A DNA stretch of 64,000 nt, from positions 1,912,831 to 1,976,830 of the forward strand of contig CP073762.1 of NCBI GenBank assembly GCA_018399055.1, in the 5' to 3' direction. Positions 1-9,000 of the stretch are shown in pieces. The position numbers were made by a program. This DNA comes from Simkaniaceae bacterium. Its GTDB lineage: Bacteria; Chlamydiota; Chlamydiia; Chlamydiales; Simkaniaceae. How positions within the stretch are numbered: the first letter of the stretch is position 1; each line of letters begins with the position of its first letter.

Positions 1-3000
1 TTCATCGAGAACGCGAAAAAGCTCGCGCCATCTACCAGCGCCAACGCTACTACCGAGGACGCCCAATCCTTAGAGATCTTTCAACAAGAGCCATTGCATG
101 CACAGATCTGTCCTCCATTGATCAACGGCTCCATGACATCCACCTGCGCACAACAAAAGCAAGTGGCCAGTCCTACATCGACAAAAAACAAAAAGACGCT
201 ACAGAGATCCAAACGTCTATCGCATCCCTCAAAAGCACCCCCATAGAGTCAAGTTGGGAAACCTGGCTCCTTAAACACCAAACCACCTGCCGCTCCATAC
301 AATCGAGCATCTCAGCCCTTAACCACACCACCTACCTCTGCGTCTCTGAAGGGAGAGAAAAACTCCAAGGAATAAACACCCAAGATCTCAATACCCTTTT
401 GTATAACGCCCTTGTTGATATCGCCAAAACCCACTACACCTCCCACGCCCAAAAAGAGTACCACACCCTTTACGAGAGTACCCAAAGAAAGCTCAAAGCT
501 CTTCAAGAAGACCACACTACCTACCACAAAACGTGGGGCAACTATCTCTGGAGTAACTGGGAAAAAGACCACCGGCAAGACGCCTACACCCTTCACATAC
601 AACTCTCCTGCCTAAGACATCTCCATAGTAATCTCATCGCCATCTCTAGAGATCCTCTGCCCAGTCTATATCCCCTCCAACAGACATTTAACTCCCTCTT
701 CCGATCCTTTGTCCCTCCAGAAGAACACGCTCCCTTCCGCTCCTCCGCTCCTGACACGTGGCAACACCACCCCCACCGAGGGAGCATCATCCACACAGGA
801 GAGCCACACCTTACAAACACCCTGCAACTCGCCTTTTCCGACCCAAAGCTTGCTGCACAAACAACCACAGAAAACAGACAACTCAAGCAGCTCTATCACC
901 AGTTCCTAAACACCACATGGAACATCCAGTGGGACGCACTCTACCAACTCATTACAAAACCCACTCCTCAAAAACCAACGCACCCTTACCAGCAATTCAT
1001 CGCTACCTACCAAAAACTGACCCCCACACATGCCGTCTACCCCTCAAGAAACGTGCGCCTAAACCCAGAAGCCATTTTTTCCAATCAAACAATCCTCACC
1101 TTAGAATGCGCGCCCAACCAAGCCCAAGAAGAGCGTGTCCCCGCCGACACCCTAGAAACCCTCCTTACAAAGCACTCCAATGCCCCTCAAGAAAAAACCT
1201 ATTTCACCAGCCCCCCAGAATACCTCATCATCAACCTTCAGCGCACAAGAGAAAACCAAGACACTCCCATCGGGCTCCAAGAAGAGTTTTTCCTCCTGCC
1301 AACGCACACAACCTCACGTAAAGGAGCCGCCTACGAACTCATCTCCTTTACCTCCTCAGACACCCACTACCGCAAAACCCCCTTCGGATACACCCGCATC
1401 AGCAACACCCTCGAAGAGATCACCCAACTCGACTTCCTCATCGCCGCACAAACAGCCTCAACGTGCGTGCTGCGCCGCAGTGACACAAACATCCCAGAAC
1501 TAGAGCTTTTCCAAAGAGCCCAACAGAATCGACTCCACTTCAGCACCCTCCAATTTAAAATAAGCGCCATCCACGCTATCTATGGACAAAGCACCTTTAA
1601 GATCCCAGCGCCCCATCAAACAACCTTCCAACATCTTGTCGACTTTATTCAGTGCGTCGCCAAAACCTCCTCACTACCAGAGCGCATGTTTGGTAAAAAC
1701 CCCAATGACGATCTTGAACGCACTTTCCAAAAACTCCCAAAAACCCTACAAACCTTCCTCCTAAACACCCTGCACGCTCCAAACAAAAACCCCGCCCTAC
1801 TTAGAGACCTGCGCACACACCTCCTCACCTCAGAAGAGACCCTCTCCATCCCACCGATCGCTGGGCAGCAACAACACGACGTAGACCGCTTCGTCCTCAC
1901 CCTCATCGCCGACAGACTCGTCAAACACTTCGCATCTCATACAGAAAGCATCCTCAAAAATGAAGACCAGCTCTTCCTCCTTCAAGCAACCCTCCACGCA
2001 GTCTCTCAAAACGTGCAAGCCAAACGGAAAAGAGTCATCCGCTACAGCGCCGCTGCCGAAGAAACCATCCAACTCACCGTCACCCTTGTCTTTTCTAACT
2101 ACCTCGAAAAAGGAGAAGAGTTCCTCATCAGGCAAGCTATTTCAAGTGGAACACGTCTCATTACCGTTATGGGAGATCCCCTCCAAGAATCCCGCCTCTT
2201 CCAAACCGCCATGCGCACCACCACAGCAATCATCCTCCTTGGCCAGTCCCTCGATAACCCCGAGCTCTCCGAACAAGATGTCCGGAATACCGGCATCCAG
2301 TTCTTCGCCCGTCAAGGCATCGCACTCATCTCCCTAGAAAGCGTCCCCCAACCTGTTCAAGACCTCGCCATCGCCACCCTCTCCACAGCTATCTTTAGAA
2401 GCCCCTCCCATCTCATCAACTGGGGCGTCTCCACAACCTTTACCCTTATTAACACCACCCTCGTTGATGATCTTCCACCAGACGTTCCTCAACCTGCCCT
2501 AAAATTCTACCGCGCCCGCATCCTCAATCCCCTATTAACAAACGGTGCCCTTCAAGCCTTCACAGCTGAGAAAGTCACCCAGCTAACCCTCCACCTCCTC
2601 CGCTCCCTCGAGGATAGCGACCACACCACCGAAGACCTCACACCTACCGTCCCCGTAGAAGAAACACCACAAGTAGAGATGCATGATAGACCACTCTACT
2701 TAAGACTGGTACAAGAGCAAGAGCAGAATGTAAAAGACTTGGCTAAAGCCCAAGCAGAACTAGATAATCCTGACTATTCAGAATTTGGAAGTCCGAAAAA
2801 AACCCTCATCCAAAGAGAAGCCGGTGTTACAGAAGCAAAAAAGAAATTAGACGAGAAAGTGTATAAAGAGGGAGATACGTGGGGTCCATGGCAAGCAAGA
2901 AGAGCAGAAAAAAAGACTGAAAAAGCTCAAGATAACTATAACGATGCTGTTAGAGGAAGAAACACGGTTAAAACGCATATCACGAATTTAGAAACTCGCA

Positions 3001-6000: not shown

Positions 6001-9000
6001 GCCTACGAAACCGAGCACAACTTCTTCCAATCAAACATCGATACCCACATCGGATCCTTAAAAGGGTGTGGCTCTTTTATTAAAGAAACCTCTAAAGTTG
6101 TCATTGTTATCGGAACACCCTTTTTAAGTAGGCACCAATTGGAAGCAACTCTCGATCACATCGACTCCTCAACAGCAGTTCTCGACACGCACTTCAGCCG
6201 CGCCATCCAGCACATCAACCCCTCCTACAATCCCGACTCCGCCTCTTCTAAAATGGGAACCTTCCTCGGGGAATACGTTATCCCCTCACTCATCCCTACA
6301 GGAGTAGCCTTCCAAGGACCCTCCCGCACCGTCATCTACATCCGTCCTGAAGTACTGACCCAAAGGCTCCAACAGATCCTCCATACACTAGAAAACCCAC
6401 GCCTCCCAAGCTTAGATAGGCTCTTCGTCCCCAACGGAAGGCCGGCTCTTGCCGGAGGGAGGATCTCTCCATTCCAACAAGGCTCGAATCAACTCAAGCA
6501 ACAAGTTCATCGCAACGGTGTTCCTAAAGCACAACCAAAACCGAAAGCAACGTCTTCAAAAGAAACTGCTAAACCCCTCAAAAAATCTGAGGATGTTTTT
6601 GCTCCCGATAGACCATTACCGAGACATACAGAAACAAAAGAACCCCTTCCTGATACTGATGCTCCACACACACAGCTAGGATCAAAAATAAGTAAAAAAA
6701 CTAACAAACCCTACCCCCAAGCTAGAGAATTTGATGCACAAGGCAAACCCGTTCGTGATATAGACTTTACGGACCATGGAAGACCTCATGAGCATCCTAA
6801 CCCTCACCAGCACGTCTACAAAGACTCACAAACGGGAGGGACTCTCCAAAGAAAAAGCAAAAAAGGCGAACCACCAGGGCAACCAGTCCCAGAATGGAGT
6901 TATGAATGAAGTCAAAAGGTATAAGAATTAGAGACGGCAGACCAGATGATGATGAGATCCTGGGGGTTTCCCCTATTAACATCCTTGAGTTACTTGATAA
7001 CAATAATAAGCTAAACTGGGCTATTTTAGAGCTAGAAGCTACAGGCGATTTAGGAGAAGAAAAGTGGACAGAACTTGAACAATTTGAAACTTCCGATACT
7101 GGCACATTGATTACCTGGGATGATTTAAAAGAAACTTCAGGAAAATTCTGGCAAGTTATCTGGATGACCATCATCGGTTGCAAAGACAAGAAGAACCTAA
7201 GGTTCTATGATACTTCATTCGAGATGTATGAATCTTGTGAGGTTGTGATTGAAATCTTTGATGGTAGCTGTTGCGAAGTCTTTTCACATGACCGCTCTTT
7301 AATAGAGCGCTTGGCGAAAAAATACAAAGAGATTGAGCTATTAGAGCCTGATTGGAATAGTGAAAATGATCAAGCCTAATTTAAGATACGCTTTCCATAT
7401 TCCAACAACGTTTGATTCCTCAGCCGTCTCATCAAAGAAATGCTCCCCTCTGTTAAAACAGAAAAAGAACATGGCCTATGGTTCAGAGGGTGGCGCACCG
7501 CAAAAGCCACCGGCTCTAAGGGTGTCCAGTGGCTCAGAGATATCGGCCTTGCAGGCGCCTCCGTTGACGTTGCACAAACAGGCATCAACGCACCCAAGCC
7601 GACAAACTCCACACCCAGCTACGCAGGGACCTACGGTCCAGATGTTGCAAGAACCCCTTCTACCCCTGCGCCCTTACAAACTCACTCCGCCGCCACACCA
7701 TCCCCAGTAAAAAACTGGGGATGGCAAGACGTTGAAGAGATGCAACAACGCAAGGTCCTCGATGCCCTCGAAAACGCCATCAATACCAACCGACAAACTT
7801 TCAGCGGCATGCCTCAAGCCCCCATCGATTACCAGACCCTATGGGGTGAGGGAATTGGACCAGAGGTCCAATTCCCTCCAACAACCTTTGATGGTGCTCA
7901 GTTAAACAGCGCTGCTACAAAACCTCCACAAGATATAGCTAAAATATATTGTTTTAGTTATACTTTTTTGAATGACATATTCGCTAGATTTTAGAAAAAA
8001 AGTACTATCGATCCGAAGTAAAGAAAGTTTAAGCTTGAGGTATAACCGAAAGTTGTGTCTGAGAACAAATGAGCGTACCCTTGGGAAGTTGAAAAAATTT
8101 CCAGAAAAAGGAGTACGCTCATGGAAAAGTATGATAAATTACCAGGATTTCAGCAAGGTTTAGAAGAGATAGTGCGAGAAGGAGCGCGAAAGATGCTTCA
8201 TCAAGCTATTGAAAGTGAAGTAGAAGAGTTTATAAAACAGTGCAACAGTTCAAAAGATGAAAATGGCCATATGATTGTGAAGAGGAACGGCTACCTTCCA
8301 GAAAGAGAAATCCAAACTGGAGTAGGTCCAATAAAAGTCAAAAAGCCTCGGGTTAAAGGAGAAGAGTTCACAAGTGCGATCTTACCAAAATATATGAGGC
8401 GGGCCCCAAGCATTGATGCTCTAATTCCAGCCCTTTATCTCAAGGGTATTTCCACAGGGAATATGAGCGAAGCTTTAGTGGCTATATGGGGGGATCACGC
8501 TAAGGGCCTTTCTGCAACAAACATTTCTAGGCTAACCAAGATTTGGGAAGAAGAGTATGCAGAGTGGCAAGACCGGGATCTATCAAGCAAAGAGTACATT
8601 TACTTTTGGGTGGATGGGATTTATTTCAATGTGAGGCTCAGTAGTGATCGTCCTTGCTTGCTTGTTATCATAGGAGCGCTTGCTGATGGAACAAAAGAAA
8701 TGGTTGCTATTTACGACGGAGAAAGAGAGAGTAAACTCTCTTGGAAAACAGTATTGCAGCAGCTTAAATCCAAGGGACTTAAACAAGGTCCAAAGCTTTC
8801 AGTTGGAGATGGGGCTCTAGGGTTTTGGGCTGCTTTAGAAGAGGAATTTCCTGGGTGCGATCAACAACGTTGCTGGGTACATAAAACCGCCAATATCCTT
8901 GATAAGATGCCAAAATCAGTTCAGGTTGATGCTAAGGCAATGATCCATGATATGTATATGTCCCCAACAAAAGAAGAGGGAATGAAAGCGATGAATCGCT

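Follow-up and report, generated by a model that had tools for sequence, protein, structure and literature searches.

A 64,000-nucleotide (nt) stretch of contig CP073762.1 from a Simkaniaceae bacterium (positions 1,912,831 to 1,976,830 of the forward strand; in the following, the window) opens with what is very probably a polymorphic toxin/immunity locus of a previously unclassified type that is restricted to the Simkaniaceae. The locus stems from a metagenome-assembled genome of 2.14 Mb and corresponds to genes KFB95_08915 to KFB95_08935 in database matches, which also bear out the obligate intracellular host lineage named in an earlier, sequence-only reading of this DNA. Its genes lie on the forward strand: a giant gene, of which the 3' 94% is present (1..4949, frame 3, 3..4949; KFB95_08915, protein P0021, 1,746 amino acids (aa)), the small open reading frame (ORF) s1 (4961..5200, 79 aa, KFB95_08920), the orphan module 2 (5269..6909, 546 aa, KFB95_08925), the small ORF s2 (6906..7379, 157 aa, KFB95_08930), and the decayed orphan module 3 (7440..7994, 184 aa, KFB95_08935). 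The ORF map reproduces the coordinates assigned to these genes in that reading. The giant ORF is open at the 5' window edge, and residues 1-98 of 1,746 lie outside the window. KFB95_06925 and KFB95_00955 are two other loci of the source genome, whose proteins include QVL55415-QVL55419. The giant protein is a five-segment mosaic of a carrier, a middle segment, a conserved block ending in junction J1, a linker of ~230 aa ending in junction J2, and a tip of ~100 aa, each segment with relatives of its own. Related loci and proteins are denoted by L and P numbers, respectively.

Orphan-cassette polymorphic toxins are a hallmark of bacteria that fight close relatives, a pressure from which obligate intracellular bacteria are usually assumed to be free. 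In the present locus, a known weapon design is built from unclassified parts in an unexpected lifestyle. Besides two junction motifs, these parts include a Gly-rich linker and no fewer than six families of tips with their candidate immunity proteins. Neither the carrier nor the block, linker A, or the junction motifs match a Pfam family, as had been anticipated for the carrier and the junction, and no description of this carrier/linker/junction family was found in the literature searched. In the general definition of polymorphic toxins, a multidomain protein carries a C-terminal toxin that varies, the immunity gene lies next to it, and cassettes also stand alone (Zhang et al. 2012, PMC3482391). 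Variable tips, co-varying small ORFs, and orphan cassettes of this kind are present here; the difference from such systems lies in the carrier, block, linker A, and YRSG junction, none of which matches a Pfam trafficking or pre-toxin domain. The relatives of the locus confirm the likeness to contact-dependent growth inhibition (CDI) and Rhs systems that the sequence-only reading had seen, as they display variable tips, co-varying small ORFs, cassettes in both orphan and main-gene position, and curated matches to EndoU and WapI.

Variable tips and their adjoining small ORFs

The range of the family was established with its linker. A HMMER profile of this segment, run against 1.84 billion representative proteins (E<=1e-3), yields 38 representatives, and every named one belongs to the Simkaniaceae or Chlamydiia; judged by this search, the family is confined to the Simkaniaceae. 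Candidatus Neptunochlamydia sp. REUL1 harbors at least 10 of its paralogues. With at least nine tip types, poly-immunity arrays, and at least ten paralogues in one genome, the family is diversifying and under selection.

Linker A of the giant (3969..4658, +; delimited by repeat D4, alignment, and hydropathy) has a length of ~230 aa. It contains two LPDMSD.PGAE(N/D)P repeats (4071-4135, 4215-4279), of which relatives possess one or two, a Gly-rich hydrophobic hairpin (4398-4538), and a junction region ...SRELRFLRSINEPAYRSGF. Across relatives, the hairpin follows the moderately hydrophobic pattern GEFVGEM.A.GG.GKVIRVAEGISV.GMACEGG.VG.V.SEAHDTNKVAGVAFGF.GGA, and the linker shows a conserved end, ...ELRFLRS.N.PAYRSG[F/I]. 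In alignments of the relatives, the J2 motif YRSGF (4644..4658, +) is the family-wide demarcation before the variable tip, and at least nine unrelated tip families follow it in searches with the post-block region and the linker profile, so that the variable region looked for by the sequence-only reading is indeed present in relatives. By these alignments, J2, which lies ~230 residues past the block, is the general toxin demarcation, and the 3' end of the block (J1) is a second, upstream exchange point. The demarcation formerly placed at the block therefore holds as a conserved pre-linker and as one of two recombination junctions, not as the general border of the toxin. At least four linker types follow J1: type A (the giant of the window, L002, and L015), type B (module 2, L014, and L020), type B' (the L004 giant and L017), and type C (intact in P0020 and L016, and a remnant at window 9389-9514).

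Linker A also has distant relatives (E 1e-12 to 1e-5), situated in the middle of proteins of 750-860 aa, namely P0044 (L012, 8001-10583), P0048, P0051, P0053, and P0054. The 33-kb element of the P0044-type proteins carries ParA, a replication-initiator-like protein, and VRR_NUC and looks like a plasmid or phage; these proteins have no Pfam or PHROGs annotation and gave no clue to the role of the linker.

The two intact tips of the window are, as far as their sequences indicate, very divergent versions of one H-x-N-P-H-x-H domain that is weakly Ntox24-like and would fall into a putative RNase superfamily. Ntox24 is described as a predicted metal-independent RNase with conserved Y/H/H residues and an all-beta structure, and is listed for chlamydiae (Zhang et al. 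2012, PMC3482391). The tip of module 2, T9 (core DIDFTDHGRPHEHPNPHQHVY, 6724..6876, +, the Ntox24-like region), reaches E=1.6e-4 to 1.9e-3 and 18.9-20.5 bits against Ntox24 (PF15529, gathering cut-off 24); the alignment covers the C-terminal 60% of the model, and the conserved His residues agree with the family description. The tip of the giant, T1' (4659..4949, +, 96 aa, core RVRFDFNRTYPHENPHLHF), is Ntox24-like by motif only and is probably a metal-independent RNase (putative). It shares the core R..D..H.NPH.H with the tip of module 2 (BLASTP E=0.002), and T1 tips from relatives match it at 33-35% identity; its AF2 model (pLDDT 76) consists of one helix and five strands. The two tips differ from Ntox24 proper in that T9 stays under the gathering threshold and T1' gives no match, and in the predicted helix and five strands, for which there is no solved structure for comparison. 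That the downstream regions of the giant and module 2 differ in sequence, as the sequence-only reading held, is thus correct, and they are not unrelated, as both display the H-x-N-P-H-x-H core.

By curated criteria, tips of relatives are predicted toxins. The L004 giant (1,784 aa), a relative outside the window, ends in EndoU_bacteria (PF14436, 39.9 bits vs. a cut-off of 25.3), a family listed for chlamydiae (Zhang et al. 2012, PMC3482391). A profile of the T2 tips of relatives matches the CdiA-CT PABL017 of P. aeruginosa (PDB 6D7Y), a tRNase of the BECR fold (barnase/EndoU/colicin/RelE type), with E=0.006 over 80 residues. Profile searches of the PDB with tip families T1, T3, T4, and T5 returned nothing credible.

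The small ORFs downstream of the toxins cluster exactly as the tips do, and nearly all overlap the toxin stop by an ATGA. T1 tips are followed by ORFs of 62-65 aa, T2 tips by ORFs of 98-118 aa, T5 tips by ORFs of 140-143 aa, and the EndoU tip by an ORF of 159 aa. The tight linkage reported earlier holds within the window, where s1 begins 11 nt past the stop of the giant and s2 has an ATGA overlap with module 2, and is joined by this co-variation across loci. We regard s1 and s2 as candidate cognate immunity proteins of the adjoining tips, T1' and T9, respectively. A homologue of s1 (76%) lies in L009, 14 nt past an orphan that is frameshifted and bears a tip with 80% identity to T1'; a further homologue is found in L011 (37-41%) and a 96% homologue on 4 other contigs. 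The ORF behind the L014 giant is 97% identical to s2 and shows the same ATGA overlap, an identical copy follows a T9-type tip in L020, and s2 weakly matches DUF2691 (E=0.0019). The array of L004 contains a 152-aa ORF that is a WapI-like immunity protein (PF24716, 104.4 bits vs. 27), none such being present in the window. Intact small ORFs also stand beside decayed toxins in L009, L018, and L019.

Two further arrangements of small ORFs were observed in relatives. In L018 (732-1655) and L019 (1147-2184), a module-2-type orphan with an internal deletion reads from the linker straight into a diverged s2-like domain in the same frame; these fusions have lost the toxin and retained the immunity part. 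One T3-type toxin of L008 has a tandem array of five small paralogous ORFs behind it (2985-5608; 48-88% identity among them), of which one gives a weak SCO4402-family match (E=1.6e-4, under the cut-off).

The small ORFs might alternatively encode type III secretion chaperones of the giants. They are small, acidic, and tightly linked, their neighbours are putative effectors, the phylum depends on type III secretion, and a CesT-family gene is located ~7 kb from the L004 locus. Chaperones, however, would track the N-terminal carrier, and the small ORFs track the C-terminal tip, which argues for immunity: one carrier is found with different small ORFs, the same small ORF also occurs behind carrier-less orphans, and none of them matches CesT or other chaperone families. 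A chaperone function is therefore considered highly improbable.

Probable cassette exchange between orphans and the main gene

The conserved block occurs in three copies, as the sequence-only reading had found (repeats D1-D3), and tblastn, which matched them with E 1e-50 to 1e-79, showed no further copy in the 64 kb. Pre-block and block copy A of the giant span 3531..3968 (+; given as 3654..3973 in that reading) and are P/S/T-rich and of low complexity, with J1 at the 3' end. Module 2 is composed of pre-block and block copy B (5269-5724), linker B, a K/P-rich spacer, and tip T9, while copy C belongs to module 3. The motifs WGWQ.VEEMQQ, FERNMAYQSP, PIDYQTLWGEG, and QLPPTTFDGA.LN are conserved in the block. 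The nucleotide identity of ~90% formerly estimated was slightly generous: the giant and module 2 are 86.5% identical across the block, and module 3 is 76.7% identical to each of them, as copy C has had one sub-block of ~65 nt replaced (HQIFERNMAYQSPVNSS -> RKVLDALENAINTNRQTFSGM; identity outside the sub-block 80-92%). Modules 2 and 3 have an additional 140 nt upstream of the block in common, at 90% identity. Immediately past ...PPTTFDGA.LN, identity falls to 23-30%, confirming the divergence claimed for this region.

The decisive evidence for exchange comes from a comparison with L014, which links module 2 to a main gene. At >=90% identity, module 2 clusters with the C-terminal end of P0091, a complete giant of 1,807 aa encoded in L014 on a 235-kb contig. 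Window 13-3973, from carrier to block, is 80.7% identical at the nucleotide level to the L014 giant, and this match ends at 3973, the 3' end of the block. Window 5292-7408, comprising module 2 and s2, is 94.0% identical to the 3' end of the L014 giant and its downstream ORF. Synonymous divergence (dS) between the window and L014 amounts to 0.17 for the cassette vs. 0.46 for the carrier, and a T1'/s1 cassette is not present in L014. Because the cassette is so much closer than the carrier and the breakpoint coincides with the 3' end of the block, the orphan's history differs from that of the carrier; the module 2 orphan is, on this comparison, the main-gene tip of another lineage. The EndoU cassette, too, is found in both positions, in the main gene of L004 and as an orphan in L017. 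Module 2 with s2 and EndoU together support the earlier proposal that orphan tip/immunity cassettes can be swapped into the main gene.

In the proposed mechanism, orphans are promoter-less-looking cassettes of block, linker, tip, and immunity gene, and the tip and immunity gene of the main gene would give way to the orphan pair through homologous recombination at J1 or, in relatives, at J2. RecA-dependent recombination could plausibly act on ~460 nt that the giant and module 2 have in common in direct orientation, at 80-87% identity and with uninterrupted matches of 31 and 27 nt. Recombination between block A and block B would delete 3654-5410 and yield the L014 arrangement, just what this event is expected to produce. 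In Rhs toxins, e.g. Salmonella rhs, the main-gene tip is swapped by homologous recombination with a downstream direct-repeat orphan; the L014 arrangement equals the main/orphan recombinant predicted by this scheme.

A different layout of block copies is seen on contig CAYGKJ010000021.1 (19.7 kb; L002/L003). Both contig ends lie inside inward-facing block copies on opposite strands, which accounts for the break of the assemblies at L002/L003, and two toxin tails converge on ~17 kb with polyketide synthase (PKS) and other genes. Such inverted block copies could mediate inversions that swap the tails of two giants.

Against functional exchange stands the view that the modules are inert debris of duplicated giants which insertion sequence (IS) elements broke up, and that cassettes are not functionally exchanged. 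This view is true of module 3. Past block copy C, module 3 follows the giant's type for ~10 codons (NSAATKPPQD vs. NPATQPPED), as had been noted, and continues with unrelated sequence to a stop; it is flanked by an IS256-family element (8037..9387, +) that interrupts the third cassette. A linker C remnant of 126 nt with an in-frame stop (9389..9514, +), 88% identical to P0020 residues 96-137 and 92% identical to P0002, forms the tail end of this decayed array, and module 3 is wreckage. Decay also occurs elsewhere, as P0002 is a scrambled fragment located at another place in the genome and orphans of L009, L018, and L019 are frameshifted or deleted. Module 2 and s2, in contrast, are intact, and the ratio of nonsynonymous to synonymous divergence (dN/dS) of module 2 vs. 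the in-gene copy is 0.19-0.24, values pointing to purifying selection on the module. In addition, the cassette is far closer between the genomes than the carrier (94% vs. 81%; dS 0.17 vs. 0.46), and two independent cassettes each occur in orphan and main-gene positions. The debris view is largely refuted for module 2, and as an account of the locus as a whole it is very unlikely.

Delivery, target, and relation to known systems

The locus shares with CDI (CdiBAI) a large protein with a C-terminal toxin past a conserved motif and an immunity gene directly downstream, as well as downstream orphan tip/immunity arrays that often comprise decayed toxins and intact immunity genes. Tip types are also shared, BECR-type tRNases and EndoU being found here in relatives. 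It differs from CDI in lacking, like its relatives, a TPS domain, FHA repeats, and VENN (Pfam/NCBIfam; sequences inspected), in having two nested junctions (QLPPT... and ...YRSG[F/I]), in orphans whose homology reaches ~150 codons upstream and which have an in-frame ATG, and in its host, an obligate intracellular chlamydia. No CdiB-type transporter is encoded among the neighbouring genes in L004, L009, and L014. From Rhs toxins it is set apart by the absence of RHS/YD repeats in the giant and its relatives and of PxxxxDPxGL in the giant. Family searches for FHA, TPS, RHS, VENN, LXG, and PAAR gave no match in the giant or its relatives.

RHS/TEN_YD-shell and PKS/non-ribosomal peptide synthetase (NRPS) genes do occur near related loci (L014, 1-1343 (-) and 17555-23638 (-); L002, 3658-7375 (-)), neither being present in the window. 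The RHS/TEN_YD-shell protein of L014 is separate from the giant, lying 8 kb upstream of it, and unrelated to it. In relatives, a PKS/NRPS cluster with a phosphopantetheinyl transferase is situated just downstream of the toxin locus.

Export of the giant probably proceeds by type III secretion, which is suggested by the lack of Sec signals in the carriers and by Ser/Thr/Pro-rich N-termini across non-homologous carriers. The N-terminus missing from the window, whose recovery the sequence-only reading had proposed, was obtained with the full 1,746-aa giant P0021; it (MTEQLSRHPRRQIEPHPLDG...) shows no obvious Sec-type signal by inspection. The Gly-rich hairpin of the linker may help the tip across the target membrane, as an insertion or translocation element; weak glycine-zipper matches are found in P0040. 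Since poly-immunity arrays are retained in relatives, as are orphan immunity genes that adjoin dead toxins, the more likely target would be competing chlamydiae within one host cell and not the host. On a tentative view, which we hold possible, the Simkaniaceae possess an interbacterial weapon of their own, in which, with no known contact-dependent apparatus, a glycine-zipper linker carries interchangeable RNase tips into rival chlamydiae that live in one host cell or vacuole.

The giants could, on the other hand, be host-directed type III effectors whose tips cut host RNA and whose small ORFs protect the producer before export, tip diversity then reflecting an arms race with the host. The cassette architecture is identical in this case, and only the target differs. 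The obligate intracellular lifestyle of the lineage, the lack of a Sec signal, and the S/T/P-rich N-termini in all carriers fit such a role, as does the RING-finger protein that ends the L009 array. OTU-like motifs (DG.C..HAL and ..H.S.C, by eye) in paralogous carriers point the same way; P0038 nears the OTU threshold (21.3 vs. 23.3 bits), and an OTU Pfam search gave no match in the L009, P0026, P0027, and P0031 giants. Most toxin-like giants of endosymbionts have been argued to aim at the host, and the URI toxin of Simkania negevensis with its adjacent immunity gene is regarded as a rare endosymbiont example (Zhang et al. 2012, PMC3482391). The same study, however, takes adjacent immunity in Simkania as a sign of intraspecific conflict. 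Immunity genes that stand alone (WapI-like in L004), are amplified in tandem (the L008 paralogues, five in number), or persist next to dead toxins (L009, L018, and L019) point to pressure to withstand non-self toxins and form a signature of bacterial competition. A host-directed role is judged rather unlikely.

Several results weigh against a toxin/immunity locus aimed at bacteria. Neither window tip has a family match above a curated cut-off (none at all for the giant, 20.5 vs. 24 bits for module 2), and searches of Pfam, NCBIfam, PADLOC, and PHROGs with the window tips and small ORFs returned nothing above threshold. Foldseek found no PDB neighbour for the AF2 model of T1' (none below E=0.9). 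Both s1 and s2 match no immunity family (Pfam, NCBIfam, and other family searches), and s1 is unrelated to the immunity proteins of other T1 tips in hhalign comparisons. A promoter/terminator scan of 4800-8100 found fewer sites than in shuffled sequence, i.e. no signal above chance, and, in contrast to typical CDI orphans, those seen here have a conserved ATG in frame at their start, which makes independent expression possible. Regarding delivery, the giant and its relatives yielded no domain associated with secretion, and type III secretion normally injects eukaryotic cells, which is awkward for a bacterial target. The near-threshold OTU match of P0038 and the motifs of other paralogous carriers likewise hint at a role in the host cytosol.

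The family indicates that these chlamydiae either compete with one another inside their hosts or use a swappable RNase arsenal against them. If an interbacterial weapon is true, kin discrimination and competition would be a real force among obligate intracellular bacteria. Either target bears on the exclusion of co-infecting bacteria by endosymbionts, an example of symbiont-mediated protection being that of amoebae against Legionella (PMC6520448), and on the export of very large proteins by chlamydiae.

Carrier segments and surrounding genes

The N-terminal carrier (residues 99-974, 3..2630, +), which has no Pfam family, is 82% identical to that of the L004 giant, 76% to that of the L014 giant, and 41% to P0023; other giants of the family are without it. 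No Pfam or NCBIfam trafficking domain was found in any carrier of the giant and its relatives. The middle segment (residues 975-1274, 2631..3530, +) has relatives that differ from those of the N-terminus: it is 76% identical to L014, 49% to P0036, 44% to P0026, and 54% (partial) to the L009 giant, and has no match in the L004 giant, which demonstrates mosaicism. A USP/UCH deubiquitinase (PF00443) in the carrier was considered and dropped (E=0.094, 12.7 bits vs. a cut-off of 23.9); the position of the catalytic Cys is occupied by His or Lys by eye, and the AF2 model is unusable (pLDDT 44).

The sample of L004 yielded a second giant, L009 (3967-14323, 1,914 aa), with a different carrier in which the OTU-like motifs DGTCGLHALLG ... 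IIYHEGCHFSRC are visible by eye, with no Pfam match. The end of its orphan array adjoins genes for the RING-finger protein, a phage-type integrase, and DUF927, and this neighbourhood suggests that the locus resides on an island-like element.

The insertion sequence downstream of module 3 encodes a transposase (8121..9329) and is bordered by 27-nt imperfect inverted repeats (8037-8063 and 9361-9387). Scores of 317.8 bits for NCBIfam transpos_IS256 NF033543 (cut-off 150) and 2e-69 for Pfam Transposase_mut, together with these repeats, assign it to the IS256 family. Its transposase belongs to a cluster of 112 members at >=90% identity, distributed over many short metagenome contigs, and the copy looks recently active and abundant in the lineage.

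The remaining window is ordinary chromosome with hemA, recX, a pseudouridine synthase, PEPCK, trigger factor, and an SNF2 helicase. The convergent neighbour of the locus (9516-10670, -) encodes 384 aa; the N-terminal half is weakly bactofilin-like and the C-terminal half is of a multi-pass membrane type, every Pfam match staying under the cut-off. Large ORFs without any Pfam family are located at 26367-33867 (+; 573 and 1,928 aa, the latter ORF overlapping the end of the former), 15282-17915 (-; 877 aa), 37214-39421 (-; 735 aa), 49282-51282 (-; 666 aa), and 52470-54176 (-; 568 aa), and may represent further lineage-specific effectors. The G+C content of the giant gene (window 1-4000) is 0.48-0.51 vs. 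~0.42 elsewhere in the window, and the same region shows a strong negative GC skew (-0.45 to -0.21); a foreign origin of the gene, or a composition rich in T/P/Q/H, could underlie both.

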